64,000 nt of DNA from Rhodobacteraceae bacterium UBA6141 (GCA_002423245.1 DIVD01000024.1:29718-93717), one strand, 5' to 3'. Positions 4,757 through 61,836 are shown, numbered from the stretch's first letter. A program made the numbers and translations. The notes: generated from the sequence alone by a model not told the origin.

Positions 4757-4946
4757 GCTGCCGCACAGGGGCAAGGCATGCAGGCGGGCGAGCGCATCGC
4801 CCGCCTTTCGCCTGCCCGGCAGGCACCCGCGCCCTCTGTGCAGATCGGGCGGCGCTTTTGTGCGGGCGGGTACGGAACCTGCATCTTTCGTAGCGACTAT
4901 ATTCTTGAACGGGTGGGGCGGGACCGGCAGCATGACGGCCATGCCC

Positions 4947-4990
4947 GCACCGGCAGACGCACCGGCAGACTCACGGGCAGACGCACGGGC
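4947..4990. repeat. ~3.7 x 12-bp tandem repeat (GCACCGGCAGAC)
   Basis: gcaccggcagac / gcaccggcagac / tcacgggcagac / gcacgggc, read directly. Ends 7 nt before the ATG at 4997. Confidence 0.85.
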
Positions 4991-4996
4991 TTCGCA

Positions 4997-6139
4997 ATGG
5001 GCGGGTCCGGTCTTGGGGACAGGAGGCGAAGGGGCAAGGTGAGGCGGCTTCGGGACAGGCTTCTCAACCTCCTGGGCCTCGGCCCGCGCGTCGAAAGCAC
5101 GCAGCGGGCCGCGCCCGCCGGTCCGGTGCGCCCGCGTTATGATCATGTGATCCTGCTCGATGGCACGATGTCCTCGCTCGAGCCGGGCGAGGAAACCAAT
5201 GTCGGGCTGATCTGGAAGCTATTGCGCGACATGCCGCGCGATCCGGCCGCTGCCCATCAGCAGATGGTCCATTACGAGGCCGGCGTGCAATGGCAGACCT
5301 GGCGGCGCTTCGGCGATGTGGCGCTGGGGCGCGGCCTCGACCGGCAGATCCGCCGCGCCTATGGCTGGCTGGCCACGCGCTACCGCCCCGGTGACCGGAT
5401 TTTCCTGATCGGCTATTCGCGCGGCGCCTATGCGGTGCGCTCGCTGGCGGGGGTGATCGACGGCGTCGGCCTGCTGCGCCATGACGAGGCGACGGAGCGC
5501 AACATCCGCCAGGCCTTCCGCCACTATGAACTGTCGCCGGGCAGCCCTGCCGCCCGCACCTTCGCTGCGCTGACCTGCCACGCCTCGGCAGAGGTGGAGA
5601 TGGTCGGCGTCTTCGACACGGTGAAGGCGCTTGGCCTGCGGCTGCCGCTGCTGTGGATGCTGACCGAGCCGCGGCACGCATTCCACAGCCACCAGCTTGG
5701 CCCGGCGATCCGCCACGGCTTTCAGGCCCTCGCGCTGGATGAAACGCGGGCGGTGTTCACGCCGGTGATGTGGACCTGCCCCGAGGGCTGGACCGGGCGG
5801 GTGGAGCAGATGTGGTTCCGCGGTGCGCATGGCGATGTCGGTGGCCAGCTTGGCGGCTTTCACGCGGCGCGGGGCCTGTCGAACATCCCGCTGGTCTGGA
5901 TGCTGTCCGAGGCCGAGCGCTGCGGCCTGATGCTGCCCGAGGGCTGGCGCGCGCGCTTTCCGATGGACCCCGAGGCGCCCAGCGTCGGCTGCTGGCGCGG
6001 CATCGGCAAGCTGTTCATCCTGCGCAGCCCGCGCAGGGTGGGCGCGGACCCCTCTGAACGCCTGCACCCGACCGCGCAGCTTTCCCCCCGCGCGCGCCGC
6101 CTGCGCCTGCCCGGCGCCGTGAGCCACGCGGCGGAATAG
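4997..6139 (+). CDS. DUF2235 alpha/beta-hydrolase (Tle1-like phospholipase fold)
   Basis: Motifs HVILLDGT, IFLIGYSRGAYAVRSLAG (GxSxG nucleophile elbow), VGVFDTVKALG and FRGAHGDVGG are characteristic of DUF2235. The start is uncertain: ATG 4997, or GTG 5039 with GGAGG upstream. Confidence 0.75.
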   Translation: MGGSGLGDRRRRGKVRRLRDRLLNLLGLGPRVESTQRAAPAGPVRPRYDHVILLDGTMSSLEPGEETNVGLIWKLLRDMPRDPAAAHQQMVHYEAGVQWQTWRRFGDVALGRGLDRQIRRAYGWLATRYRPGDRIFLIGYSRGAYAVRSLAGVIDGVGLLRHDEATERNIRQAFRHYELSPGSPAARTFAALTCHASAEVEMVGVFDTVKALGLRLPLLWMLTEPRHAFHSHQLGPAIRHGFQALALDETRAVFTPVMWTCPEGWTGRVEQMWFRGAHGDVGGQLGGFHAARGLSNIPLVWMLSEAERCGLMLPEGWRARFPMDPEAPSVGCWRGIGKLFILRSPRRVGADPSERLHPTAQLSPRARRLRLPGAVSHAAE

Positions 6140-9528: not shown

Positions 9529-9601
9529 CCTCGCGGCAGGGCCTTTCCTTTCGCCGCGCCCGCTTGTATAGCACCGCGCTTGAACAAGGGAGCCTTCCGG
9601 C

Positions 9602-10393
9602 ATGCAGGGCAGCGCAAACCTCAACCTGATGATCAAGGCCGCCCGCAAGGCCGGCCGCAGCCTGGTCAAGGACTTCCGCGAGGTCGAGAACCTGCAGGTC
9701 TCGGCCAAGGGGCCGGGCGACTTCGTGACCAGGGCCGACCGCGAGGCGGAGCGGATCATCAAGGAAGAGCTGCGCGGCGCGCGCCCCTCCTATGGCTGGG
9801 TGGGCGAGGAGACCGGCGAGGCGGCGGGCGAGGATCCGACCCGGCGCTGGCTGGTCGATCCGCTGGATGGCACCACCAACTTCCTGCACGGGTTGCCGCA
9901 CTGGTGCATCTCCATCGCGCTGGAGCACAAGGGCGAGATCGTCTCGGCCGTGGTGTTCGACCCGGCCAAGGACGAGATGTTCCGCGCCGAGAAGGGCCAG
10001 GGCGCCTGGATGAACGAAGGGCGGATCCGCGTCTCGGGGCGGCGGAGCATGATCGAGGCGATCTTCGCCACCGGCGTGCCCTTCGGCGGCCGGTCCACCC
10101 TGCCCGCCACGCTGCAGGATCTGGCGCGGCTGATGCCGGTCTGTGCCGGGGTGCGCCGCTGGGGCGCGGCGGCGCTCGACCTCGCCTATGTGGCGGCGGG
10201 GCGCTATGACGGCTATTGGGAGCGCGGGCTGCAGTCGTGGGACATCGCGGCGGGGCTGCTGCTGGTCAGGGAGGCGGGCGGCTTTGTCGGCCCGGTGCGC
10301 GAGGGGGCCGACATGCTGCGATCCGGGTCCATCATTGCCGGCAATGCCGCGCTTTTCGACCCGCTGTGCAGGATCCTGCGCGAGCCGGCCTGA
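9602..10393 (+). CDS. suhB: inositol monophosphatase family protein
   Basis: LNLMIKAARKAGRSLVKDF...VTRADREAERIIKEEL...WLVDPLDGTTNFLHGLPHWCISIALE, the IMPase motifs. Confidence 0.9.
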   Translation: MQGSANLNLMIKAARKAGRSLVKDFREVENLQVSAKGPGDFVTRADREAERIIKEELRGARPSYGWVGEETGEAAGEDPTRRWLVDPLDGTTNFLHGLPHWCISIALEHKGEIVSAVVFDPAKDEMFRAEKGQGAWMNEGRIRVSGRRSMIEAIFATGVPFGGRSTLPATLQDLARLMPVCAGVRRWGAAALDLAYVAAGRYDGYWERGLQSWDIAAGLLLVREAGGFVGPVREGADMLRSGSIIAGNAALFDPLCRILREPA

Positions 10394-11417: not shown

Positions 11418-11804
11418 CTACCTGTCCGACGGGTGATTGACCCCGTCGCTCCACTCCACCGCGCCGAGGTCGCGGGGGTTCAGCCCCTCGAGGCAGGCGG
11501 CATTCACCCCCAACTCGTTCGGGTTGGACCGGCGGCGATGGTGGGTGTAGATCCCGCAGACCGAACAGAACCAGTGCTCCGCGGTCCGGGTGCCGAACTG
11601 ATAGAGCGTCAGCCTGTCCGCCCCCTCGACGATCCTCACCCCGTCCAGCGGCGCGGTGACGGCGATGGCGCCCCGCCTGCGGCAGAACGAGCAATCGCAG
11701 CGGCGGGCGGTGCCGAGGCCCCCGGGCGCCAGCGTCACCTCGAAGCGCACGGCGCCGCAATGGCAACTGGCGGGGTGGTTCGGGCGGATCGGGGGCAGGG
11801 TCAT
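11418..11804 (-). CDS. GFA/CENP-V family Cys-rich zinc protein
   Basis: MTLPPIRPNHPASCHCGAVRFEV...CDCSFCRRRGA...WFCSVCGIYTHH carries the GFA-domain Cys pattern. ATG 11804 overlaps the rhomboid stop (ATGA). Confidence 0.8.
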   Translation of the reverse strand: MTLPPIRPNHPASCHCGAVRFEVTLAPGGLGTARRCDCSFCRRRGAIAVTAPLDGVRIVEGADRLTLYQFGTRTAEHWFCSVCGIYTHHRRRSNPNELGVNAACLEGLNPRDLGAVEWSDGVNHPSDR

Positions 11805-12541
11805 CGGCGGCGCCTCACGGTCGGGATGCGGGTCGGGGAATAGGTCAGGCCGGGATGCGGCGGCAGCCCGTGGGTGCGCGACCAGAAGCCGGGGCCCCCG
11901 CGCGCAAGCCACAGCGGCAGCGCCAGCACCAGCCCCGCCACGAAGCCGCCGGCATGAGCCCAGTAGGCGACGCCGCCCGTGGCGGCATCGACGGAGGTGC
12001 CGTTGAACACCTGCAGCACGAACCACAGGCCCAGCATCGCCCAGGCCGGCACGGGCAAGATCCGGAAGAAGATGATGAAGATCACCAGCACGTCGACCCG
12101 CGCGCGCGGGAACATCAGCAGATAGCCGCCCATCACCCCCGCGATGGCGCCCGACGCGCCGACCGTGGGGACGAGGCTGAAGGGATCGGCGATCAGATGC
12201 GCCCCCGCCGCCGCGACGCCGCAGGCAAGGTAGAAGCCGAGGAAGCGGGCATGGCCCATTTCGTCCTCCAGATTGTCGCCGAAGATCCACAGGAACAGCA
12301 TGTTGCCGACCAGATGCAGCAGCCCGCCATGCAGGAACATCGAGGTGACCACACCGTGCCACGCCTGCCCCCGGGTAACGAGGCCGGGGACGAGCGCCCA
12401 GTCGCCCCAGAAGGCCATCAGCGCGCGTTCATCCGCGAAAAGCGGCCAGGAATAGAGGAACACCGCCACATTCGCCGCAATCAGCGCCCATGTGGCATAG
12501 GCCGGATTGCGCGAGGGGTTGTGGTCGCGGATCGGGAACAT
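11801..12541 (-). CDS. rhomboid-family intramembrane serine protease
   Basis: SMFLHGGLLHLVGNMLFLWIFGDNLE...VGASGAIAGVMGGYLLMFP contains the rhomboid HxxxN and GASG catalytic motifs. Confidence 0.88.
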   Translation of the reverse strand: MFPIRDHNPSRNPAYATWALIAANVAVFLYSWPLFADERALMAFWGDWALVPGLVTRGQAWHGVVTSMFLHGGLLHLVGNMLFLWIFGDNLEDEMGHARFLGFYLACGVAAAGAHLIADPFSLVPTVGASGAIAGVMGGYLLMFPRARVDVLVIFIIFFRILPVPAWAMLGLWFVLQVFNGTSVDAATGGVAYWAHAGGFVAGLVLALPLWLARGGPGFWSRTHGLPPHPGLTYSPTRIPTVRRRR

Positions 12542-12710
12542 GCGGCAAGGGTGGCCGCGATGGCGGGCGGCGTCAAGGGTCGGGGACCCTCTGCCAGGTT
12601 CGGCTGACGAGCGTCTGGGCGGCCTGCCACTTCGGCATGATCTTCAAGGCTCCGTCAGCGGGCGCAGCAAGAACGGGCGGGCGCGGCGCGCCGGATGCCC
12701 CGCAGCCGGG

Positions 12711-21926: not shown

Positions 21927-22128
21927 CGCGATGTGGTGACAGGTGGCGACATCTCCAGCGGATCCATGGGGGCGATGTGGGGGGCGATGTGGCAATGGTG
22001 CCATGGCGCGCCGGGTCGATATGATTTTGACCTTTTCAGCCGTCACGGACGTGCTAGTACGACCCATGTGGAGCGCCCCGCTCGTGGCGACGGCGCGCCG
22101 CAGCGGGTGATCAGGACGGAGGCGAACA

Positions 22129-22677
22129 GTGGTGAGAGAGATCATGGGGGCGGCGGCGGCCGCGGTGATCGGGCTGGCGCTGGCGACAGGGCCGCTGCTG
22201 GCGCAGCAGGTCGTGCGCGGCGAAAGCTATGCGCCGGCAATCTGGGTCGATCCGGACGGCTGCGAGCACTGGGTCATGGACGACGGCTGGGAAGGCTACA
22301 TGGACGCGCGCCTCGACAGCCGCGGCCTGCCGGTCTGCAACCGCGGCGAGGCTTGCGGCGAGATGCCGGCGGACCAGCTTTTCGCCACGGACAGCGCCAC
22401 CCTCTCGCCCGCTGGCCGCCGCCAGCTCGAAGCGTTCTTCGCCGCGAACAAGGCGAAGGGCTACGTGATCGCGGGCCATACCGACAGCAGCGCCAGCGAC
22501 GCCTACAACATGAAGCTGTCGCAGCGCAGGGCCCAGTCGGTCGCCGCCGTCGCGAAAGCTGCCGGTGCGCGTGTCGTGGACGTGACCTGGTTCGGCGAGC
22601 GTCAGCCCAAGGCATCCAACGCCACCGCGACCGGGATGCAGCAGAACCGCCGCGTCGAAATCTTCTGCACCCGCTGA
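22129..22677 (+). CDS. OmpA-like peptidoglycan-binding protein with N-terminal Cys-motif domain
   Basis: Signal-like AAAAAVIGLALATGPLLAQQ, then IWVDPDGCEHWVMDDGWEGYM...GLPVC, then an OmpA_C-like part FATDSATLSP...GHTDSSASDAYNMKLSQRRAQSV...NRRVEI. GTG 22129 has GGAGG 7 nt upstream. Confidence 0.8.
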   Translation: MVREIMGAAAAAVIGLALATGPLLAQQVVRGESYAPAIWVDPDGCEHWVMDDGWEGYMDARLDSRGLPVCNRGEACGEMPADQLFATDSATLSPAGRRQLEAFFAANKAKGYVIAGHTDSSASDAYNMKLSQRRAQSVAAVAKAAGARVVDVTWFGERQPKASNATATGMQQNRRVEIFCTR

Positions 22678-48735: not shown

Positions 48736-48807
48736 GGCCGGATCCCGGCTGCGAGAAGGCGCGGGGGGCTCTGGCGCGCGCCCGCGCCCTTCGCTAGGTT
48801 TGCGCCG

Positions 48808-50337
48808 ATGACCGGGACTGCGCTGACCTTTTCCGCCGATCAGGCCGAAGCCTGGGACCGTCTGGCCGAGGCGCTGGAGGGGGCGGGCGTCGATATCGTC
48901 AATGGCAGTTCGGAGCGGCCCGGAGAGGACGGCGCGCGCACCATCATGGCGGTGGTGGGCAAGGCGGGGTCGGGCAAGACCATGCTGCTGGCCGAGCTGA
49001 CCCGAGCGCTGGAGGGGGCGGGCGTCGACATCATCTCGGGCGATTACGAGGGCAAGCGCCGCAAGGACCGGCGCCGGCTGGCGATCCTCGCGCCGACCAA
49101 CAAGGCGGCGAGCGTGCTGCGCAGCCGCGGGGTGCCGGCGACGACGATCCACCGCATCCTCTATACCCCCGTCTATGACCCGCAATATGAACGCATCGCC
49201 GAGTGGCTGGCGAATGGCGGCGAGCGGCCGGGGATCGAGGGGCTGACCGAGGCGGCGCTGGACCGGGCGAAGGCCTTCTACGAGCTGGTGAAATCGGTGC
49301 CGGGGGCGCTGGCGAGCGCCGGGCTGCGCGGCTCGGACTTCATCCTTGGCTGGAAGCGGCGCGAGGATCCCCTCGACATCGGGCTGATCGACGAATGCTC
49401 GATGCTCGACGACCGGCAGTTCGATGACCTCAAGCAGATCTTCCCGACGCTGGTGATGTTCGGCGATCCGGCGCAGCTTGCCCCGGTCAACCAGTCGGGC
49501 GCGATGGCCTTCGACCGCCTGCCCGAGGGCCAGCGGCTGGAGTTGCACCGCATCCACCGGCAGGAGGGCGACAACCCGATCCTCGACCTTGCCCATGCGC
49601 TGGCCGACGAGGATCTGACCTTCGAGCGGTTCGAGCGGATGGTGGAGGAGGCGGCGCGGCGCGACCCGCGCGTGGTCTGGGCCGAGCGGGTGGAGAGCGA
49701 CCTGATGGCGCGCTCGCCGGTGCTGGTCTGGCGCAACCAGACGCGGATCCGGCTGATCCAGGCGTTCCGGGGCGCGTTCGGCGCGCCGATGGATGCGCTG
49801 CTGCCGGGCGAGCCGCTGATCTGCGACGGGATCGAACTGCCGCTGAAGCACCGCAAGAAGCGCATCGACCTCGAGGCGCGGGGGCTGATCAAGGGGGCGC
49901 AGGTGATCTATCTCGGCCCCGGCAGGAAGCCCGGTTTCAGCCGCATCCATGTGATCGGCGCCGAGGAGCCGCAGGTCTCTGCCGCCTCGATCATCAAGAT
50001 CGAATTGCCGGATGCGGAGGAGCCCTTCATCCCCTATGCCGCGCGGATGGGCGCCGCCTTCCTGCACGGGGCTGCGGTGACGATCCACAAGGCGCAGGGC
50101 TCGCAATGGGAGAACGTGCAGGTGTTCGCGCCCGACCTCTATGCCGCCTCGCGCGCCGGGCGGACCGAGGCGGGCATTCCGCTGTGGAAGCGGCTGGCCT
50201 ATGTGGCGATCACCCGGGCGGAAACGCGGCTGCTCTGGGTGGTGCGCAACCGGCTGTCGCGGCCGGTGGCGCCGCTGACGGTGGAGGATTTGCCGCAGAA
50301 CGCCGCCCCGCTGGCACTGCTGCGCGAGGAGGAGTAG
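48808..50337 (+). CDS. SF1 RecD/Pif1-like ATP-dependent DNA helicase
   Basis: VVGKAGSGKTML (Walker A), LAILAPTNKAASVL, LIDECSMLD (Walker B), FGDPAQLAPV, TIHKAQGSQWENV and YVAITRAETRL. Confidence 0.8.
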   Translation: MTGTALTFSADQAEAWDRLAEALEGAGVDIVNGSSERPGEDGARTIMAVVGKAGSGKTMLLAELTRALEGAGVDIISGDYEGKRRKDRRRLAILAPTNKAASVLRSRGVPATTIHRILYTPVYDPQYERIAEWLANGGERPGIEGLTEAALDRAKAFYELVKSVPGALASAGLRGSDFILGWKRREDPLDIGLIDECSMLDDRQFDDLKQIFPTLVMFGDPAQLAPVNQSGAMAFDRLPEGQRLELHRIHRQEGDNPILDLAHALADEDLTFERFERMVEEAARRDPRVVWAERVESDLMARSPVLVWRNQTRIRLIQAFRGAFGAPMDALLPGEPLICDGIELPLKHRKKRIDLEARGLIKGAQVIYLGPGRKPGFSRIHVIGAEEPQVSAASIIKIELPDAEEPFIPYAARMGAAFLHGAAVTIHKAQGSQWENVQVFAPDLYAASRAGRTEAGIPLWKRLAYVAITRAETRLLWVVRNRLSRPVAPLTVEDLPQNAAPLALLREEE

Positions 50338-54792: not shown

Positions 54793-55778
54793 ATCCGGGG
54801 CGCGCGGCCGATGGGCAGGGCGCCAAGCGTGATCCAGCCGCCCGACAGCACCAGCGGCACCCGCAGGTCGCCCTCGGCGCTGCCCGAGGCCTCGGCGATC
54901 TTTTCCAGCGCGGCGGCATAGGTCGGCGCAAGCTCCGGCGGCACGAGGCCCGCGGCCACCGCCAGCGCCAGAACCTTGCGCCACTGCCGGGCGTCGATCT
55001 CGACGCGGCCCTGCAGGCGCCCGTCCGCGCCGCGCTCCAGCAGGCCGCCGGCGCGCAGGCTCGCCTCGCCCCACCGCAGCGAAACCTCTTGCAGGTCAAG
55101 CGCCTGCGGGACCGGCGGCGCGGCGCCCGCGTGGCGGTCCAGCGGCCGGTCCAGCGTCAGCCTGCCATCGAGCCGCAGCCAGTCGAGCCGGTCCGGCTGC
55201 GTGGCCTCGGGGTCTGCCACCGCGCGCAGCGCGGGCGAGAGGGTCAGCCCCAGCAGTTCCGCGCCGATATGGTGGACGCGGCGGGCGGCATCCGTCGCCG
55301 CGCTTGCCAGCCGCGCCTCTGTCAGCGCGATGCTGCGGCCCGCCCCGGCGTCGAGCGCCAGATCCCGCGCGACGAACACCGCGCGGTCCAGCGGCAGGGC
55401 GCCGCTGGCGCCCAGCACGGCAGAGGCGCGCATGTCGGCGCTGGTGATCGCCAGCGGCAGGCCCGCCAGCGTCAGCCGCTGGTCATGCGGCCAGACCGCG
55501 ATCACGTGGCCGGGGCGGTAGGCGAGCATGAACAGTTGCACGAAGGGCGCAGTCCAGCGCAGCGTGCCATCGGCGCTTTGCAGCGCCACGGGTTCCACCG
55601 TCAGGTCGAACCGGCTGGGAAAGCCGCGCAGGGTGATCGCCGCCGGGCCGGCCAGCCCCTGCGCCTGAAGGTCCGCCAGCGCGGCCTCGGCCCCGCGCCG
55701 CATCGCCATGGACCCGGCCACCCAGTAGCCGCCGTAGAGCACGGCCGCCGCCGTCGTGATCCAGAGAAGCGCGCGCAT
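54789..55778 (-). CDS. DUF2125 family periplasmic protein
   Basis: N-terminal anchor MRALLWITTAAAVLYGGYWVAG, then an Ala/Leu/Arg-rich soluble part. The family assignment is from memory of similar alphaproteobacterial proteins. The stop overlaps the convergent stop in CTAG. Confidence 0.6.
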   Translation of the reverse strand: MRALLWITTAAAVLYGGYWVAGSMAMRRGAEAALADLQAQGLAGPAAITLRGFPSRFDLTVEPVALQSADGTLRWTAPFVQLFMLAYRPGHVIAVWPHDQRLTLAGLPLAITSADMRASAVLGASGALPLDRAVFVARDLALDAGAGRSIALTEARLASAATDAARRVHHIGAELLGLTLSPALRAVADPEATQPDRLDWLRLDGRLTLDRPLDRHAGAAPPVPQALDLQEVSLRWGEASLRAGGLLERGADGRLQGRVEIDARQWRKVLALAVAAGLVPPELAPTYAAALEKIAEASGSAEGDLRVPLVLSGGWITLGALPIGRAPRI

Positions 55779-55855
55779 GCCGTGGGGGCCTTTCCCGAGC
55801 CGTTCCGCCGGTGTTTACAGAAGGCACGGCGCGACGGCCAGAGCGGAGGCATCAC

Positions 55856-56383
55856 ATGTGGGTATTTGGCTATGGCTCGCTGATCTGGCAGCCGGATTTC
55901 CCGGTCGCCGAGGCGGTGCCCGCGCTGCTGGAGGGCTGGCACCGCAGCTTCTGCATGCGCTCGATCCACCATCGCGGCAGCGAGGCGGAACCGGGGCTGG
56001 TGCTGGCGCTGGATGCGGCGGCGGGGGCCGCGTGCCTTGGCGTCGCCTTCCGGGTGGCGCCGGGGGCCGAGGCGGCGACGCTGGCCGCGCTGCGCGAGCG
56101 CGAGCTGATCAGCTCGGCCTATCTCGAGCGCGTGCTGGAGGTGGCGCTGACCGACGGGCGCCGCGTCGAGGCGCTGGCCTATGTGATCGACCCCGGGCAT
56201 GTGCAGTATTGCGGCGGCCTGCCGCTGGAGGAACAGGCGCAGGTCATCGCGCGCGCCGTCGGCGGGCGCGGGCCGAACCGCGACTATCTGTGGAACACCG
56301 CCGCGCATCTGGACGGGCTTGGCCTTGGCGATCCGGATCTCGACTGGCTGGCGGCGCGGGTGCGGGCGCTTGCGCAACGCTGA
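55856..56383 (+). CDS. chaC: gamma-glutamylcyclotransferase, ChaC family
   Basis: MWVFGYGSLIWQPDFP...GWHRSFC...PGLVLALD...RELISSAY. ATG 55856 follows GGAGG. Confidence 0.85.
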   Translation: MWVFGYGSLIWQPDFPVAEAVPALLEGWHRSFCMRSIHHRGSEAEPGLVLALDAAAGAACLGVAFRVAPGAEAATLAALRERELISSAYLERVLEVALTDGRRVEALAYVIDPGHVQYCGGLPLEEQAQVIARAVGGRGPNRDYLWNTAAHLDGLGLGDPDLDWLAARVRALAQR

Positions 56384-56440
56384 CGGCTGCGGCAATGCTG
56401 CACTGCCGATAACGGTTGGCAGGGGCAGCGCCGGACCCTA

Positions 56441-56479
56441 TTGTCGGGGCAAGGCAGACAGTTGTCGGGCCAGGGCAGA
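56441..56479 (+). promoter_or_regulatory. two 18-bp direct repeats (21-bp period) upstream of the stator-like operon
   Basis: TTGTCGGGGCAAGGCAGA (56441-56458) and TTGTCGGGCCAGGGCAGA (56462-56479), 16/18 identical. They end 15 nt before ATG 56495. Function unknown. Confidence 0.45.
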
Positions 56480-56494
56480 GTGGCGGGAGACCTC

Positions 56495-57739
56495 ATGCAA
56501 GAGCCCCAGATCGAACGGGCCCCGCAGGGCAGGGGCCCGAAGGACCGGATCCTGAAACAGCCAGAGCCGTCCTTCTCGCAGCCGGTGCGGCAGGCGGTGC
56601 TGATGCTGATCGTGACCGGGCTGGTCTGCGCCGGCGCCTATCTTGCCTATTCCTCGATCGCCTCGATCTTCCTGTCGAACCCCTGGCTGAACGGGCTGAT
56701 CATCGGGGTATTCGTGCTGGGGATCCTCACCTGTTTCTGGCAGGTCTGGGTGCTGGCGCAATCGGTCAGCTGGATCGAGGGCTTCGCCGCCGGCAATCCG
56801 GGGCATGACCTTGCCGCGCCGCCGCGGCTGCTGGCCCCGCTCGCGGCGCTGCTGCGGGCGCGGGGCATCCGGGGGCAGATTTCCGACTCTTCGGCCCGCT
56901 CGATGCTGGACTCGGTCGAGGCGCGGATCGAGGAGGCGCGGGACATCACCCGCTATCTTGGCAACCTGTTGATCTTCCTTGGCCTTCTGGGCACGTTCTA
57001 TGGCCTCGCGATCACCGTTCCGGCGGTGGTGGACACCATCCGCTCGCTGGCGCCGCAGGCGGGCGAAAGCAGCATGGCGGTGTTCGACAAGCTGATGAGC
57101 GGGCTGGAATCGCAGCTTGGCGGCATGGGCACGGCGTTCTCGTCCTCGCTGCTGGGGCTGGCGGGCTCGCTGGTCATCGGCCTTCTGGAGCTGTTCGCCG
57201 GGCACGGGCAGAACCGGTTCTACCGCGAACTGGAGGAATGGCTGTCCTCGATCACCCGGCTGAGCTTTGCGGGCGGCGAGGGCGAGGGGGCCACGGATCA
57301 GGCCTCGATTGCCGCGATGATGGACCATATGGCCGGGCAGATGGAAGTTCTGCAGACGCTGGTCGCGCAATCCGAAGGCGAGCGCAGCGCGGTGGATGAA
57401 CGGCTGTCGATGCTGGCCGGGTCCGTCGAGCGGCTGGTGCGGCACATGGAAGGCGGGGTGGGCACGGCGGCCGCGCTGGACCGGATCGCCGAGGCGCAGG
57501 AGCGGATCATCGCGGCGCTGGAGGCGAAGGCGGCCGACGGCCTTGCCCCCGATGCCGAAAGCCGGATGCGGCTGCGCTCGATCGACGTGCAGATGCTGCG
57601 GCTGCTGGAGGAAGTCTCGGCGGGGCGGCAGGAATCCATCGGCGAGTTGCGCGGCGATCTTGCGGCGCTGACCCGTGCGGTGCGCGGGCTGGCGGACCCG
57701 GCGCGTGTCATCGGCCCCTCGCCTGGACGGAGGGGCTGA
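56495..57739 (+). CDS. MotA/TolQ/ExbB-family proton-channel protein with ~165-aa helical C-terminal tail
   Basis: Four hydrophobic helices. TM3/TM4 carry the family signature (YLGNLLIFLGLLGTFYGLAITV; GGMGTAFSSSLLGLAGSLVIGLLELF). The tail is rich in A/E/L/R/Q. ATG 56495 follows GGGAGA; the track ORF starts at TTG 56441. Confidence 0.8.
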   Translation: MQEPQIERAPQGRGPKDRILKQPEPSFSQPVRQAVLMLIVTGLVCAGAYLAYSSIASIFLSNPWLNGLIIGVFVLGILTCFWQVWVLAQSVSWIEGFAAGNPGHDLAAPPRLLAPLAALLRARGIRGQISDSSARSMLDSVEARIEEARDITRYLGNLLIFLGLLGTFYGLAITVPAVVDTIRSLAPQAGESSMAVFDKLMSGLESQLGGMGTAFSSSLLGLAGSLVIGLLELFAGHGQNRFYRELEEWLSSITRLSFAGGEGEGATDQASIAAMMDHMAGQMEVLQTLVAQSEGERSAVDERLSMLAGSVERLVRHMEGGVGTAAALDRIAEAQERIIAALEAKAADGLAPDAESRMRLRSIDVQMLRLLEEVSAGRQESIGELRGDLAALTRAVRGLADPARVIGPSPGRRG

Positions 57740-57740
57740 G

Positions 57741-59348
57741 ATGGCCCTGTCGCGCCGCAGCGCACGGGGGCCGTCGAACATCTGGCCCGGCTTCGTCGAT
57801 GCGGTGACGACGCTGCTGATGGTGCTGATGTTCATCCTGACGATCTTTACCGTCGTGCAATCGGTGCTGCGCGAGCAGATCAGCAGCCAGACAACGGAAC
57901 TCGATGAACTGTCGGCGCAGGTTGCCGGGCTGGCCGACGCGCTGGGGCTGGAGCGCGGCCGGGTCGCGGAACTGGAGGCGGGGCTGGCGGCGGCGGGGGC
58001 GGCGGCGGCGGCGCAGGAACGCCTGATCGCCACGCTGCGCGGGCAAGTGGCGGAGCGCACGGCAGAGCTTGGCGCGGCGGAGACGCGGATCACCAGTTTC
58101 GAGGCGCAGGTGGCGGCGCTGATCGCGGACCGGGACCGCGCGGCGGCGCAGGTGGCGGAGCTGGGCGCCGAGCAGCAGCGGCTGCTGTCGGAGCAGGAGG
58201 CGCTGAACCTGGCGCTGGCGAATGCGCGCGCGGAAACCGACGCGCAGGCCGAAGCGGCGCGCCTCGCCGCCGCCCGGCGCGAGGCGCTGGAGGCGCTGAT
58301 CGCCGACCTGCGCCTGCGCAACGCCAATGCCGAGGCCGCCGCCGCCGAAGCACAGGTGAAGCTGTCCGAGGCCGAGGCCGCGCGACTGGCCGATGCCGCC
58401 GCCGCCGAGGCGCTGCGCGAGCGGCTGCAGGGCGCGCAGGCGGAACTGACCGCGATGACGCTGGCGCTGGAGGAACAGCGGCAGCGCGCCGAGGAGACGC
58501 TGACCCTGCTGGCGGCGGCAGAGGCCGCGAAGCGCGACCTCGATCTGCAACTGGGCGAGGTGGCGGAGGCCGCCACCGAGGCGGAACGCCAGGCGGCCCT
58601 GCTGGCGGTCGCGCGCGAGGAACTGGCCCGGGAGCGCGAGGTTTCGGCGGATGGCCAGCGGCAGATCGCGCTGCTGAACGAACAGCTTGCGGCGATGCGC
58701 GGCCAGCTTGGCGCGCTGCAGGAGCTGCTCGACGCCTCGGCCGCGCGCGACAGCGAGGCGCAGGTGCAGATCGAGGCGCTTGGCGGGCAACTGAACTCTG
58801 CCCTCGCGCAGGTGGCCGCCGAACAGCGCCGCCGGGCCGAACTGGAGGAGGCGGAGCGCAAGCGGCTGGAGGCCGAGACGAAGGAGCTGGAACGCTATCG
58901 CTCGGAGTTCTTCGGGCGCCTGTCGCAACTGCTGGAAGGGCGCGAGGGGGTCCGGGTCGTCGGCGACCGGTTCGTGTTCTCCTCCGAGGTGCTGTTCCAG
59001 CCCGGCTCTGCCGATCTGGCGCCGGAAGGGCGGGCGCAGATCGCCGGCGTGGTGAAGATCCTCAACGAGGTGGCCGGGGACATCCCGCCCGAGCTGGACT
59101 GGATCATCCGGGTGGACGGGCACACCGACAATGTGCCGCTGTCGGGCCAGGGCGAGTTCCGCGACAACTGGGAGCTGAGCCAGGCGCGGGCGCTGTCGGT
59201 GGTGCGCTACATGATCGACGGGCTGGGCTTTCCGCCGGCGCGGCTGGCGGCGACCGGCTTTGGCGAATGGCGCCCGGTGATGGAGGGCGACACGCCCGAG
59301 GCGCGGGCGGCCAACCGGCGGATCGAACTGAAGCTGACGGAACGGTGA
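57741..59348 (+). CDS. MotB/OmpA-family protein with ~340-residue coiled-coil spacer
   Basis: The start is coupled (TGAgATG, GGAGGGG upstream). The N-terminus [22 protein letters not shown] has the invariant TM Asp. The C-terminus is OmpA-like ([10 protein letters not shown]...[13 protein letters not shown]...NRRIELKL). The region between is continuous A/E/L/R/Q heptad-like sequence. Confidence 0.8.
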
Positions 59349-59426
59349 GGGGCTGCCGGGGGGGGGGGCGGTTCCCGCCTGCGCGTCTTCGCGTGGTGCC
59401 GCCCCTCTACCCCGTCCGCCGAAACC

Positions 59427-59453
59427 AAACCCCCGCCAGTGCGGCGGGGGTTT
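59427..59453. terminator. bidirectional terminator hairpin between the convergent stator-like operon and clpA
   Basis: aaacccccgcc-agtgc-ggcgggggttt is a perfect 11-bp stem flanked by A-run/T-run, so both strands read stem plus U-tract. Confidence 0.65.
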
Positions 59454-59471
59454 GATGTTGTCACTCTGCGG

Positions 59472-59507
59472 TCACTTGTCAGTCCGCAGTCACTTGTCAC
59501 TCTGCGG
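59472..59507. repeat. 2 (plus 1 partial) x 18-bp tandem repeat overlapping the clpA stop codon
   Basis: tcacttgtcagtccgcag / tcacttgtcactctgcgg, preceded by partial tgtcactctgcgg. The clpA TGA (complement of 59497-59499) lies inside the last unit. Confidence 0.8.
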
Positions 59508-61836
59508 TCAGCAGCGGCGGCTTCTGGCCGGTGAGGCGCGGTTTCAGCGGCTCGCCCACGTCAAGGACGAGGGCATCGTCCTTGACCGTGATCCGCACCA
59601 CGCCGCCCTTGGTCAGCTTGCCGAACAGCAGCTCTTCCGCCAGCGGCTTCTTGATGTGCTCCTGGATCACGCGGCCAAGCGGGCGGGCGCCCATCTTGTC
59701 GTCATAGCCCTTCTCGGCCAGCCAGCCGGCGGCTTCGGGGCTCAACTCGATATGCACGTGCCGGTCGATCAGCTGCGCCTCGAGCTGCAGGACGAACTTG
59801 TCCACGACCTGCATGATGATCTCGCGCGAGAGCGGCGCGAAGCTGATCACCGCATCGAGGCGGTTGCGGAATTCGGGCGTGAAGGTGCGCTCGATCGCGG
59901 CGGTATCCTCGCCGGTGCGCCGCTCGCGGCCGAAGCCGATGGCGGCCTTCGCCATGTCCGAGGCGCCGGCGTTCGAGGTCATGATCAGGATCACGTTGCG
60001 GAAATCCACCGTCCGGCCGTTATGGTCGGTCAGCTTGCCGTGGTCCATCACCTGCAGCAGGATGTTGTAGACATCCGGGTGCGCCTTTTCCATTTCGTCC
60101 AGCAGCAGCACGCAATGCGGATGCTGGTCCACACCGTCGGTCAGCATCCCGCCCTGATCGAAGCCGACATAGCCCGGAGGCGCGCCGATCAGCCGCGAGA
60201 CCGCATGTTTCTCCATGTATTCCGACATGTCGAAGCGCAGCAGTTCCACGCCGAGGCTGTCCGCCAGCTGCTTGGCGACCTCGGTCTTGCCGACGCCGGT
60301 CGGGCCGGCAAAGAGGTAGTTGCCGATCGGCTTTTCCGGCTCGCGCAGGCCGGCGCGGGCCAGCTTGATCGCCGAGGCCAGCGCCTCGATCGCCTTGTCC
60401 TGGCCGAAGACGACGCGCTTGAGCGTCTTTTCCAGATCGCGCAGCACCTCGGCATCGTCCTTGGACACCGTCTTGGGCGGGATGCGGGCGATCTTGGCCA
60501 CCACGGCCTCGATCTCCTTGGCACCGATGGTCTTGCGCCGCTTGCTGTCGGCCAGCAGATGCTGGGCCGCGCCCGCCTCGTCGATCACGTCGATGGCCTT
60601 GTCGGGCAGCTTGCGGTCGTGGATGTAGCGCGCCGCCAGTTCCACCGCCGACTTGATCGCGTCCTGGGTGTAGCGGATGTCGTGGTGCTGTTCGAAATAG
60701 GGCTTGAGGCCCATCAGGATCTTGACGGTGTCATCGACCGAAGGCTCGTTCACGTCGATCTTCTGGAACCGGCGGCTGAGCGCGCGGTCCTTTTCGAAGT
60801 GCTGGCGGAACTCCTTGTAGGTGGTGGAGCCCATGCAGCGCAGCTTGCCGCCCTGAAGCGCGGGCTTCAGCAGGTTGGAGGCATCCATCGCGCCGCCCGA
60901 GGTGGCCCCGGCGCCGATCACGGTGTGGATCTCGTCGATGAACAGGATCGCGTCGGGGTGATCCTCGAGTTCCTTGACGACCGCCTTCAGCCGTTCCTCG
61001 AAATCGCCGCGATAGCGGGTGCCGGCCAGCAGCGCGCCCATGTCGAGCGAGTAGATCGTGGCGCCGGCAAGGATGTCGGGCGTCTGGCCGCGGGTGATCT
61101 TCAGCGCGAGGCCCTCGGCGATGGCGGTCTTGCCGACGCCGGGATCGCCCACCAGCAGCGGGTTGTTCTTGCGGCGGCGGCACAGCACCTGGATGCAGCG
61201 CTCCACCTCCTGTTCGCGGCCGATCAGCGGATCGACCTCGCCCTTGCGGGACTTGGCGTTGAGGTCGACGCAGTATTTCGCCAGCGCCGATTCCTTGCCC
61301 TCGCCGCTGCCCGAAGGCGCGGCGCTGCCGCTGCTGCCGGTTTCGGCCTCCTCCTCGGTCGCGCCGGTGATGGGACGGCTTTCGCCGAAGGAGGGATTCT
61401 TGGCGACGCCGTGGGCGATGAAGTTCACCGCGTCATAGCGCGTCATGTCCTGTTCCTGCAGGAAATAGGCGGCGTTGGATTCGCGTTCGGCAAAGATCGC
61501 GACCAGCACGTTGGCGCCGGTCACCTCGGTGCGGCCCGAGGATTGCACATGGATCGCCGCGCGCTGGATCACGCGCTGGAACGCGGCGGTCGGCACGGCC
61601 TCGGACCCTTCGACATCGGTGACGAGGGTGGAAAGGTCATCGTCGATGAACTCCACCAGCGTGCGGCGCAGATCGTCGAGATCGACGTTGCAGGCCCGCA
61701 TCACCTTGCCGGCATCGGGCTCGTCGATCAGCGACAGGAGGAGGTGTTCAAGCGTCGCAAGCTCGTGCCGGCGTGCATTGGCAAGCGCCAGGGCGGCATG
61801 GATGGCCTGTTCGAGTGTGTTCGAAAACGACGGCAC
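59497..61836 (-). CDS. clpA: ATP-dependent Clp protease ATP-binding subunit ClpA
   Basis: GTG start after [42 protein letters not shown], two AAA+ modules ([20 protein letters not shown]). The short middle region is ClpA-type rather than ClpB. Confidence 0.93.

Follow-up and report, generated by a model that had tools for sequence, protein, structure and literature searches.

A conserved MotA/MotB-type gene pair of Alphaproteobacteria with a long, length-variable predicted periplasmic coiled coil

Introduction

The closest named sequence relative of the A subunit described here belongs to Zorya, whose ZorAB complexes (E. coli type I, PDB 8QYD; Shewanella, 8VVN) are encoded in defence islands with ZorC, D, E, F or G. 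ZorA has three transmembrane (TM) helices. Its C-terminal tail is helical and cytoplasmic, and the single deletions within it that abolish defence span 234–295 residues; in ZorB an OmpA-like peptidoglycan (PG)-binding domain is fused to an Asp-bearing TM helix without a linker (PMC11946911). Flagellar stators (MotAB, PomAB and MotPS) are encoded by adjacent, coupled genes, A before B, and combine a four-TM A subunit, which in MotA and PomA has a large torque-generating cytoplasmic domain, with a B subunit built from an N-terminal Asp-bearing TM helix, a plug helix and a C-terminal OmpA-like domain. TolQ and ExbB are three-TM A subunits that work with a TolA or TonB partner. In the Tol system, a motor driven by proton motive force (PMF) is combined with a long helical periplasmic arm, domain II of TolA, and a PG-associated OmpA-like domain, these functions being split over TolR, TolA and Pal. 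A further point of comparison comes from Komagataeibacter hansenii, a member of a genus without flagella, which carries a ‘motA/motB’ pair encoding a 348-aa MotA with four TM helices and a 321-aa MotB (Jacek et al. 2019, PMC6570709).

Here we analyse a pair of genes, A and B, within a 64,000-nt stretch of DNA (the window) from Rhodobacteraceae bacterium UBA6141. A first-pass annotation of the window had described the pair as a conserved but uncharacterised envelope motor rather than a mobile defence island, with a function that was entirely open. Database records name members of this family ‘flagellar motor protein MotA’ and ‘chemotaxis protein MotB’, and some name A ‘biopolymer transporter ExbB’.

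The A subunit

Gene A (56495..57739, + strand; ATG at 56495, stop codon TGA at 57737–57739 included) encodes a 414-aa channel subunit of the MotA/ExbB/TolQ/ZorA superfamily, and gene B (57741..59348, + strand; ATG at 57741) encodes a 535-aa MotB-type subunit. Both ORFs, for which the first-pass annotation had given these same lengths, have a GC3 of 0.87–0.90, as real genes do in a window of 70% GC, and the public contig gene call for A (P0001, 414 aa) is identical to ours. Hydropathy and AlphaFold agree with that annotation on the layout of A, with four TM helices (aa ~33–56, 65–89, 155–179 and 213–237) followed by a helical tail of about 165 aa. The TM1–TM2 hairpin (56591..56761, +; AlphaFold helices 30–59 and 63–98) is preceded by an N-terminus whose richness in Arg and Lys predicts a cytoplasmic location, and the cytoplasmic loop between TM2 and TM3 is just ~65 aa long. 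TM3 (LIFLGLLGTFYGL) and TM4 (GMGTAFSSSLLGLAGSL), which together span 56957..57205 (+), are the putative ion-path helices: G163, L165, G166, T167, G170, L171, F215, G221, L222 and G229 are invariant among 31 diverse family members, the stretch is the one matched by the ZorA and MotA_ExbB HMMs, and its Gly/Thr channel motifs are kept down to 30% identity.

The AlphaFold model of the A monomer (pLDDT 78.9 overall, >90 in the TM core) has the fold of this motor class. When it was compared with the PDB using Foldseek, ranks 1–47 were all TolQ, ExbB or ZorA chains, with a probability of 0.85–1.0, target TM-scores mostly of 0.45–0.6 and E-values of only ~1e-2; the best matches of the core were TolQ 9DDM and ExbB 5SV0, and flagellar MotA or PomA chains were absent from the top 50. 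In profile searches, PADLOC ZorA1 matched all 31 diverse members (best E = 1.6e-16) and A itself at E = 1e-11, covering only TM3–TM4 and the start of the tail, while Pfam MotA_ExbB (PF01618) gave weak matches in 23 of the 31 (best E = 2.2e-5). The only named NCBIfam relatives of these 31 members were ZorA models (ZorA_4 and ZorA_2), with A scoring 24.6 against a cut-off of 500 bits for ZorA_4 and 14.5 against 250 bits for ZorA_3; no NCBIfam TolQ/ExbB model matched the 31 members at E ≤ 0.01, and no NCBIfam MotA model matched them. The MotA/ExbB/TolQ channel signature that the first-pass annotation had read in A is real, in that the motifs LIFLGLLGTF(W/Y)GL and GMGTAFSSSL.GLAGSL are near-invariant across the family, but weak, in that A scores 12.8 bits against a Pfam gathering cut-off of 22.9. 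A lies below every curated family threshold, and it is assigned to the superfamily by its fold, its motifs and the pairing of its gene with B.

The cytoplasmic tail (aa 250–414; 57242..57736, +) is predicted to form three helices separated by breaks (269–319, 324–347 and 354–400; AlphaFold, pLDDT 55–75). Residues 269–400 show heptad periodicity (z = 7.8), and the length and motifs of the tail are kept down to 33% identity. A long coiled-coil tail had been singled out as a hallmark of ZorA; the helical character of the A tail holds up, but the hallmark is only faintly present, as a broken 165-aa tail is far shorter than one in which inactivating deletions alone cover 234–295 residues.

The tail, the fact that ZorA models are the sole named relatives of A by sequence, and the presence of ZorA chains among its structural matches nevertheless raise the question of whether A and B form a minimal or ancestral Zorya-like sensor, in which the PG-anchored complex would sense a disturbance of the envelope, such as an attack by phage, and the A tail would relay the signal to effectors whose genes lie elsewhere. 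B adds to the likeness with its Asp-bearing TM helix and OmpA-like domain, and its best PADLOC match is ZorB3 (E = 1.4e-21). Against this, the scores of A fall far under the ZorA thresholds, its four TM helices differ from the three of ZorA, and where ZorB has no linker, B and its orthologues place a coil of ~358 to ~945 residues between the TM helix and the OmpA-like domain.

The B subunit and its coiled coil

B passes the whole-protein cut-off of NCBIfam NF006542 (PRK09039.1-1, ‘peptidoglycan-binding protein’) with 798.9 against 388 bits; the PRK09039 group to which this model belongs (NF006542–NF006546) has a name alone, without an attached function. The single TM helix of B (aa ~15–40 by hydropathy; 57783..57860, +) contains Asp20 (codon at 57798–57800), which is invariant in 54 of 54 homologues gathered without regard to this residue and is also present in S. 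meliloti and Rhodospirillales orthologues. The C-terminal OmpA-like domain (aa ~405–535; 58953..59345, +), predicted to bind peptidoglycan, matches Pfam OmpA over aa 418–526 (E = 3e-18), has PDB sequence matches to MotB and PomB, and in Foldseek retrieves MotS, PomB, DVU_2228 and H. pylori MotB (E ~1e-10, TM-score 0.7–0.75). Both the MotB-type helix with its Asp and the OmpA-like C-terminus had been recognized in the first reading of the sequence.

The structural proximity of this domain to MotS, PomB and MotB, the N-terminal Asp helix, the MotA-like four-TM topology of A and the arrangement of the two genes would fit a true flagellar stator with an auxiliary role, in line with the names that the pair bears in many database records. 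Yet B has no match to Pfam MotB_plug (PF13677) at E ≤ 1, its linker is 10–30 times longer than that of flagellar stators, and it scores far under the MotB-type NCBIfam equivalogs (at best 97.7 against 283 bits for MotD; 76.3 against 300 bits for MotB). A, with its short TM2–TM3 loop, has no counterpart of the large torque-generating domain of MotA and PomA, in keeping with the absence of flagellar MotA from its top structural matches.

Between its two ends B is a predicted periplasmic coiled coil (aa 41–398, ~358 residues; 57861..58934, +; AlphaFold helices 18–271 and 281–398), which would measure ~53 nm as a straight helix. The AlphaFold predictions are of monomers, with a pLDDT of 55–80 in the A tail and the B coil. 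There is no proline in the 358 residues, nor in the 945 residues of the longest orthologue, and hydrophobic residues recur with a 3.5-residue periodicity (z = 20 against shuffles). The first-pass annotation had called this stretch an ‘uninterrupted’ coil of ~340 residues, which is only slightly overstated given the strong heptad periodicity and a single predicted helix break at aa 272–280 (58554..58580, +). This break is the main hot spot of length variation, with a mean of 78 residues inserted there among orthologues. The length of B in a set of 75 orthologues runs from 342 to 1126 aa, with the variation concentrated at two hot spots; the central coil segment varies from 9 to 578 aa and the coil as a whole from ~160 to ~945 residues, a range put at about seven-fold. 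The arms on either side show indels that are multiples of seven in 67 of 72 sequences (N-arm) and 72 of 72 (C-arm), and their mean column identity within Rhodobacterales is 66–69%. The B coil is thus composed of two conserved arms and a freely expandable middle. Because its length ranges so widely among orthologues, a role in envelope spacing, one of the functions suggested at first pass, is disfavoured; a coil of unfixed length would instead act as a tether or reach element, or fold back upon itself.

Such a coil could also be the functional part of a largely passive tether or periplasmic scaffold, with A as a mere membrane anchor or assembly factor and no ion-driven movement. Most of B is coil, with well-conserved arms and a length that evolves freely, as it does in tethering proteins. 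However, the invariant TM Asp of B and the conserved Gly/Thr channel motifs of A are not what would be expected of a mere anchor, and the strict gene coupling and the conservation of the A tail also weigh against a passive role, which we consider very unlikely.

Helical reach combined with a PG-binding end also brings to mind a Tol/Ton-like energizer, in which TolR, a TolA-like helical arm and a Pal-like PG anchor would be fused in B, and the PMF would be used at sites of division to pull on or remodel the wall or the outer membrane. The structures that A matches best, TolQ and ExbB, and the resemblance of the B coil to TolA domain II suit this reading, as does the ExbB name given to A in some records. 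It is opposed by the extra N-terminal TM helix of A, which makes four rather than three, by the missing TolQ/ExbB profile matches, and by B itself, whose TM helix, Asp and OmpA-like domain are of MotB type; Pfam and NCBIfam profile searches found no ExbD/TolR-type match in B.

Genome context and distribution

Throughout Rhodobacterales the pair occupies a chaC-A-B-clpA gene order, with chaC upstream of A in 81 of ~83 loci, whereas S. meliloti and Rhodospirillales metagenome-assembled genomes have in common the order suhB-A-B-ABC-rpmE. The neighbours in the window are hisC-like, tyrC, extensin-like, DUF2125, chaC and clpA genes, and the base composition of A and B is the same as that of their surroundings. 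We found no phage copies of the pair and no true plasmid copies, the ‘plasmid’ matches being records of 3.5–4.6 Mb only, one of which was examined and contains chromosomal housekeeping genes. The pair is therefore a vertically inherited component of the core genome across Alphaproteobacteria, consistent with the first-pass view that it does not belong to a mobile defence island.

That annotation had also reported no flagellar, tol-pal, tonB/exbD or zorC/zorD genes anywhere in the window, and this is borne out: among the window's 39 largest ORFs of high GC3 there are no flagellar, tol, exb, tonB or zor genes, a scan outside which fell the stretches at ~25.7–27.3, 36–37.6 and 50.3–51.7 kb, where no ORF passed the filter. 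Flagellar genes are likewise missing from the syntenic loci of relatives, which leaves the pair without the context expected of a flagellar stator. No TonB- or TolA-like gene adjoins A and B in the window, a further point against a Tol/Ton-like energizer.

For a Zorya-like sensor, the context is no more favourable. No zorC–G-like or other defence gene adjoins the pair, PADLOC returning generic ATPase/helicase matches only, and zorC/zorD, zorE and zorF/zorG effectors are also absent at the related loci examined. One relative (L001) has a weakly matching HNH_5 gene beside B, and ZorE is an HNH nuclease; the position is variable, however, being taken by a Peptidase_M23 gene in a second relative (L002) and by nothing in the window. 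With core-genome synteny across orders added to the divergence of both subunits, we regard the sensor reading as distinctly unlikely.

Probable orthologues with published data

The K. hansenii ‘motAB’ pair very probably belongs to the same family as A and B, judging from protein sizes and from termini of 6–7 residues. The published primers encode termini (MTRPTTY... for MotA; MARRSR...EFRLTDR and stop for MotB) that match the A–B family, as do the size class and the architecture of a four-TM subunit next to a subunit with one TM helix and an OmpA-like domain. The K. hansenii MotB is a short form, and the coil in Rhodobacterales is two to six times longer. The family is thus not wholly unstudied. 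In K. hansenii, GFP fusions are polar or bipolar, overexpression gives elongated, chained cells with septa as well as faster spreading on soft agar, and disruption mutants are viable (PMC6570709). These phenotypes, obtained mainly by overexpression, could be due to non-specific membrane stress.

In Phaeobacter inhibens DSM 17395 the syntenic gene PGA1_c25180, a probable B orthologue assigned by synteny alone, bears two transposon insertions and does not figure among the mutants listed as impaired in motility, whereas the true flagellar motA and motB lie inside the flagellar cluster and are required for motility. Although faster spreading of K. hansenii overexpressors could be taken as a stator effect, a probable orthologue that is dispensable for swimming, and a family that very probably occurs in flagellum-less Komagataeibacter, make a flagellar function extremely improbable. 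The chained K. hansenii cells resemble tol phenotypes and would fit the Tol/Ton-like energizer, which we nonetheless judge unlikely; it overlaps mechanistically with the motor that we favour and differs from it mainly in output.

A proposed model for a probable A–B motor

We think it probable that A and B make up an ion-driven 5:2 motor of the MotAB/ExbBD/TolQR/ZorAB type, which is inherited vertically and belongs to the housekeeping equipment of the envelope in Alphaproteobacteria. The outcomes that the first-pass annotation had named as contrary to such a motor did not occur: the pair does not fall into a characterised subfamily, the spacer is predicted to be helical rather than disordered, and the Asp is conserved. 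In our model, the TM helices of two B chains, with their Asp20 residues, would insert into a ring of five A subunits and, with no plug in between, run on into a long parallel coiled coil, and the C-terminal OmpA-like domains would bind peptidoglycan. If these domains hold the wall, B would be the fixed element, and proton flow along the path formed by TM3/TM4 and the Asp would turn or ratchet the A ring around it. The conserved 165-aa cytoplasmic tails of A could then serve as an output or partner-binding element, and the B coil as a tether or reach element, unless it folds back upon itself. A rotary motor would be poorly served by a torsionally soft coil of 50–140 nm as its reaction arm, and simple ‘stator anchoring’ may therefore misdescribe the arrangement.

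The most likely cellular role of this motor is in organization of the envelope or cell pole and in separation of daughter cells, and not in swimming, in energy transfer of the TonB or Tol type, or in defence against phages. The polar location and the link to cell separation are suggested, tentatively, by analogy with the work on probable orthologues. More speculatively, the pair may constitute a functional class of its own among ion-driven 5:2 motors, beside the flagellar, Ton/Tol, gliding/T9SS and Zorya classes: a pole-associated housekeeping motor that would be ancestral in Alphaproteobacteria and may have been the source from which the ZorAB of Zorya was recruited, with the B coil as its working element, whether a torsion spring or ‘twisted-rope’ actuator or a long-reach tether. 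We hold this broader proposal to be doubtful at present, but if true, the long, heptad-exact and length-evolvable B coil could convert proton flow into cell-wall work or sensing.

Expression signals of the locus

The intergenic region between chaC and A contains a promoter-like site, TTGGCA-17 nt-TATTGT (56416..56444, +), which is a match to the sigma-70-like consensus only and is the sole such match in the 4 kb from 55700 to 59700, where 0.1 would be expected. A Shine-Dalgarno-like GGGAG lies at 56485–56489, upstream of the ATG of A. An alternative TTG start at 56441 was rejected; it overlaps the −10 element and has no backing from the N-termini of orthologues. At the junction of the two genes (57729..57743, +), which reads GGAGGGG-C-TGA-G-ATG, a Shine-Dalgarno-like GGAGGGG precedes the stop codon of A, and a single base separates this codon from the ATG of B, exactly the coupling described at first pass; the A–B gap is 0–3 nt in 72 of the 81 related loci that have a complete downstream B. 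Beyond the end of B, a GC-rich hairpin, CCCCCGCC-agtgc-GGCGGGGG (59430..59459, no strand assigned), with A-rich and T-rich flanks, was read directly from the sequence, the element scan having missed it, and on this reading it is likely to terminate transcription in both directions between B and clpA, which converge here.

A coupled pair of motor-type genes

Genes A and B are two plus-strand open reading frames between 56.4 and 59.3 kb of the window, with GC3 values of 0.87 and 0.90, and their composition is unremarkable against surroundings that have a GC content of ~70% throughout. The preferred start of A is ATG 56495 (+), which gives a protein of 414 aa; the public gene call for the same contig, P0001, is a 414-aa protein identical to A from this ATG, the N-terminus is covered by close orthologues, and GGGAG lies 5 nt upstream. 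An alternative TTG start at 56441 is overlapped by a sigma-70-like match, TTGGCA-17-TATTGT (56416-56444, +), the sole such match within 4 kb. The 535-aa B protein is read from ATG 57741 (+), and the junction between the genes reads GGAGGGG-C-TGA-G-ATG, which bears out the coupling claimed in the first-pass annotation. Past the 3′ end of B, the stretch towards the convergent clpA gene includes a GC-rich hairpin and then a T-run. The 15-mer GTCACTCTGCGGTCA is directly repeated across the clpA stop codon, at 59460-59474 and 59496-59510, with GTCACTTGTCA-related motifs between the two copies.

Subunit A as a member of the MotA/ExbB/TolQ/ZorA superfamily

The layout of A is the same by hydropathy and in an AlphaFold model based on 56 homologues (mean pLDDT 78.9, membrane core >90): an Arg- and Lys-rich N-terminus precedes a TM1-TM2 hairpin (aa ~33-56 and ~65-89), a cytoplasmic loop of ~65 aa leads from TM2 to TM3 (aa ~155-179), and TM4 (aa ~213-237) is followed by a C-terminal tail that AlphaFold models as helices 269-319, 324-347 and 354-400 with pLDDT of 55-75. 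The TM3 motif LIFLGLLGTF(W/Y)GL and the TM4 motif GMGTAFSSSL.GLAGSL are near-invariant in homologues down to 30% identity, across which the tail also keeps its length and several motifs.

A passes the cut-off of no curated family in Pfam or NCBIfam. The channel signature that had been read from the sequence is real but weak: the Pfam MotA_ExbB score of A is 12.8 bits, below the gathering score of 22.9, and weak matches to the same model recur in 23 of 31 family members. All 31 of these diverse members match the PADLOC ZorA1 model (best E = 1.6e-16), and ZorA models are the only named relatives of A in NCBIfam, every score being far below cut-off; none of the NCBIfam TolQ, ExbB and MotA models is matched by A or these 31 members. 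PDB sequence searches were uninformative, as A alone drew chance FtsY matches only and the coiled-coil tail in the A-family profile drew designed helical bundles that masked the TM core, and we therefore judged kinship by fold search. With the A model as query, TolQ, ExbB or ZorA chains fill Foldseek ranks 1-47 (probability 0.85-1.0, target TM-score mostly 0.45-0.6, E only ~1e-2), and flagellar MotA is absent from the top 50. By fold, motifs and gene pairing, A is thus a member of the MotA/ExbB/TolQ/ZorA superfamily, and ZorA is its nearest relative as judged from sequence comparison.

Subunit B carries an invariant membrane Asp and an OmpA domain

B begins with 13 cytoplasmic residues followed by a single TM helix, whose Asp20 is present in 54/54 B homologues gathered without reference to this residue, as the earlier reading of an invariant TM Asp had anticipated; it is present too in the Sinorhizobium and Rhodospirillales orthologues. 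Pfam MotB_plug finds no match in B. In the AlphaFold prediction, helices at 18-271 and 281-398, separated by a break at 272-280, precede an OmpA fold. This C-terminal domain matches Pfam OmpA (E = 3e-18), is matched by MotB and PomB chains in sequence, and by structure resembles MotS, PomB, DVU_2228 and H. pylori MotB (E ~1e-10, TM-score 0.7-0.75). Over its full length, B reaches 798.9 bits with NCBIfam NF006542 (PRK09039.1-1, ‘peptidoglycan-binding protein’; cut-off 388), an entry that carries a name and no function.

The coiled coil of B varies in length in steps of seven residues

Residues 41-398 of B are proline-free, consist of 27% Ala, 15% Glu, 15% Leu and 10% Arg, and show an L/I/V/M/F periodicity of 3.5 residues (z = 20 vs shuffles), upholding the proposed coiled-coil spacer; a single heptad register runs continuously from the TM helix to residue ~140. 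Among 75 complete orthologues taken from the retrieved loci, B ranges from 342 aa in S. meliloti to 1126 aa in a Rhodobacteraceae MAG, in contrast to A, which measures ~364-433 aa among the matches listed. Length changes concentrate at two hot spots, one after residue ~272 of the window protein, at the predicted helix break (central segment 9-578 aa, mean insertion 78 aa), and the other after residue ~203 (segment 0-298 aa). Length differences of the conserved arms are exact multiples of seven in 67/72 sequences for the N-arm and 72/72 for the C-arm, and even the longest coil, of 945 residues, contains no proline. The longest B gene is free of DNA tandem repeats by TRF. The central insert of the 1126-aa protein (locus L066) contains degenerate ~36-aa protein repeats, L..RY..ER..AS.TI..L..DL.A....NA.Q...L.AL, and such repeats without a tandem repeat in the DNA point to coil growth through old segmental duplications.

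At 0.15 nm per residue, a straight coil would span ~24 nm in S. meliloti, ~53 nm in the window and ~140 nm at the extreme, and the distance from inner membrane to peptidoglycan in E. coli is ~9 nm (quoted in PMC11946911), so the claim that an extended coil would outreach this gap holds. Together with the length variation, which is ~seven-fold for the coil, these spans make a spacer or ruler of fixed length, standing at right angles to the membrane, very unlikely, and envelope spacing of this kind, one of the options in the first-pass annotation, is disfavoured. The coil must instead double back on itself, run within the periplasmic plane or serve as a slack tether. In an antiparallel hairpin the two arms might be expected to vary together in length, but N-arm and C-arm are uncorrelated in this respect (r = 0.08), which leaves a simple arm-on-arm hairpin unsupported. 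The main insertion site falls on the only predicted helix break, a placement that would fit growth at a hairpin tip and growth of a linear rod equally well.

The pair is a core-genome operon in several alphaproteobacterial orders

The source organism is a member of the Paracoccaceae near Defluviimonas and Frigidibacter. The A family comprises 2351 clusters (50% identity level) at E <= 1e-3 and 429 at E <= 1e-30; the best 80 loci of our contig scan are all from Rhodobacterales, and the breadth of the family beyond that order comes from the profile search, cluster names and Sinorhizobium/Shinella records filed as plasmids. Rhodobacterales share the order hisC-like / tyrC / extensin-like / DUF2125 / chaC / A / B / (variable) / clpA, with chaC immediately upstream of A in 81 of ~83 loci and B immediately downstream of A (gap 0-3 nt in 72/81 loci). 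What lies between B and clpA differs among loci: a weak HNH_5 gene in L001, a Peptidase_M23 gene in L002 and no gene in the window. In Frigidibacter albus, B appears split into a 164-aa N-terminal ORF and a 470-aa OmpA gene call, which is a frameshift or assembly error (regions concerned here and in the slot before clpA: L001:11234-13812 and L002:13015-13977).

A deeper A clade, mostly labelled ‘flagellar motor protein MotA’, includes Rhodospirillales MAGs, Hyphomicrobiaceae, Aureimonas and a Sphingomonadales MAG. The S. meliloti order is suhB-like / A (368 aa) / B (342 aa) / ABC transporter / rpmE / DUF1465, and the Rhodospirillales loci share this frame, with the addition of a proline-rich OmpA-domain gene directly upstream of A. 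The run from the suhB-like inositol monophosphatase through A, B and the ABC transporter to rpmE is thus common to S. meliloti (locus L090) and Rhodospirillales. The upstream gene (L084:6707-7939, also in L085, L086 and L088) encodes a proline-rich protein of 230-410 aa, in which a hydrophobic segment is N-terminal and the C-terminal domain is OmpA-like, and forms an OmpA-A-B trio in Rhodospirillales-type loci; this extra gene is missing from that position in Rhodobacterales and S. meliloti. Locus L088 also has a rhomboid gene near the pair. The window carries inositol monophosphatase and rhomboid genes at 9584-10390 and 11804-12643, ~45 kb from A and B, suggesting that the link of the pair with both was broken up in Rhodobacterales.

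Rhizobia and roseobacters are among the groups that share the core-genome synteny of the pair, which is conserved in at least three orders of Alphaproteobacteria. No homologues of the pair occur among 50,697 phage records, and the ‘plasmid’ matches are confined to records of 3.5-4.6 Mb. The S. meliloti record examined (L090, CP090106.1; PLSDB label ‘S. meliloti plasmid pSymB’) has chromosomal housekeeping genes, and its size of 3.7 Mb together with rpmE, ykgO, purE and thiE identifies it as a mislabelled chromosome; four further matching records of 3.5-4.6 Mb, three from Sinorhizobium and one from Shinella, are probably mislabelled as well. PADLOC detected no defence-specific genes near the pair, and the 39 window ORFs scanned with Pfam are all of the housekeeping kind, in agreement with the surroundings first described. 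Synteny, coupling, and the lack of phage copies, true plasmid copies and defence genes together mark an old core-genome operon passed on by vertical inheritance, which stands in neither a flagellar nor a defence context.

Probable orthologues in cultured species

We found no mechanistic study of the family in the literature searched. A 2025 survey of MotAB relatives put non-flagellar homologues into one group, ‘generic ion transporters’ with no known function, and left ZorAB out of its phylogenetic analyses. The papers on the S. meliloti Rgs polar-growth proteins and the R. sphaeroides CenKR regulon were considered as sources of named homologues and set aside, as neither mentions a pair of this kind.

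Komagataeibacter hansenii has no flagella, yet carries a ‘motA’ of 348 aa (4 TM) and a ‘motB’ of 321 aa (1 TM + OmpA) (Jacek et al. 2019, PMC6570709). The motA primers encode (V/M)TRPTTY, the first seven residues of the A-family proteins P0301 and P0405, and the motB primers encode MARRSR...EFRLTDR*, consistent with B-family termini; going by these short termini, the two genes are probable orthologues of A and B. When either gene was overexpressed, cells were longer and formed septate chains, colonies spread three-fold wider and the cellulose was looser. GFP fusions showed a polar location in short cells and a bipolar one in long cells, and disruption mutants were viable and made denser cellulose (PMC6570709).

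In Phaeobacter inhibens DSM 17395, chaC (PGA1_c25200), the extensin-like gene (PGA1_c25220) and gloB (PGA1_c25140) place the pair at PGA1_c2518x-2519x, and synteny makes PGA1_c25180 the probable B orthologue. This gene has two independent transposon insertions and is missing from the table of motility-impaired mutants, which includes the flagellar-cluster motA and motB. The OmpA-domain protein PGA1_c02930, with two motility-impaired transposon mutants (PMC12363192), was rejected as the B orthologue, since it lies at a different locus. An ‘orphan second motA’ (motA2) is up 12-fold in ctrA and cckA mutants along with siderophore clusters (PMC12363192), a co-regulation that makes it probably an ExbB. 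We established no tie of either PGA1_c02930 or motA2 to the pair.

A probable 5:2-type motor outside the known jobs

To our knowledge, 5:2 ion-driven motors have a handful of jobs: flagellar rotation, TonB/Tol energy transfer, gliding/type IX secretion and Zorya defence. The best-supported reading of A and B is a peptidoglycan-anchored, proton-driven motor of the 5:2 type, distinct from the flagellar, Tol/Ton and Zorya kinds; its stoichiometry, ion coupling, peptidoglycan binding and moving partner we infer. It probably works in the envelope, at the pole or septum, and might be linked to cell separation. A is ZorA-like in sequence but sits in a housekeeping setting, and combines a MotA-like 4-TM topology with a short ZorA-like tail; the hallmark of B is its heptad-exact periplasmic coiled coil of ~seven-fold varying length.

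The novelty first seen in the pair is partly a product of annotation. Its distinctive features are real, but the family is on record under the name PRK09039 and several wrong names, often flagellar motor protein or ExbB. Given these entries and the motAB phenotypes from one genus, it is not a new kind of machine but an uncharacterised variant of the 5:2 motor theme. A two-stranded coil of 50-140 nm would make a soft reaction arm, a difficulty for a simple ‘stator’ picture. The coil itself may do the work, acting like a torsion spring or a tether; alternatively, it could be folded in the resting state. The range of coil lengths with heptad phase kept offers a natural series on the role of the stator anchor arm, and since probable orthologues in two culturable species tolerate disruption, the driven process is directly testable. 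The pair may also bear on the origin of the Zorya motor.

Other genes in the window

An SF1 helicase-like gene (AAA_30, UvrD_C_2) at 48736-50334 (+), ~6 kb upstream of the pair and after a zinc-dependent dehydrogenase gene, matches the PADLOC candidate-defence model PDC-M16A (E = 6.9e-24). At 4757-6136 (+), directly downstream of an ornithine/DAP decarboxylase-like gene, lies a T6SS Tle1-like phospholipase catalytic domain (E = 1.4e-60), with no T6SS genes among the scanned window ORFs. A 188-aa OmpA-family protein encoded at 22111-22674 (+), between a MiaB-like radical-SAM gene and phoH, shares only its domain type with the A-B pair.
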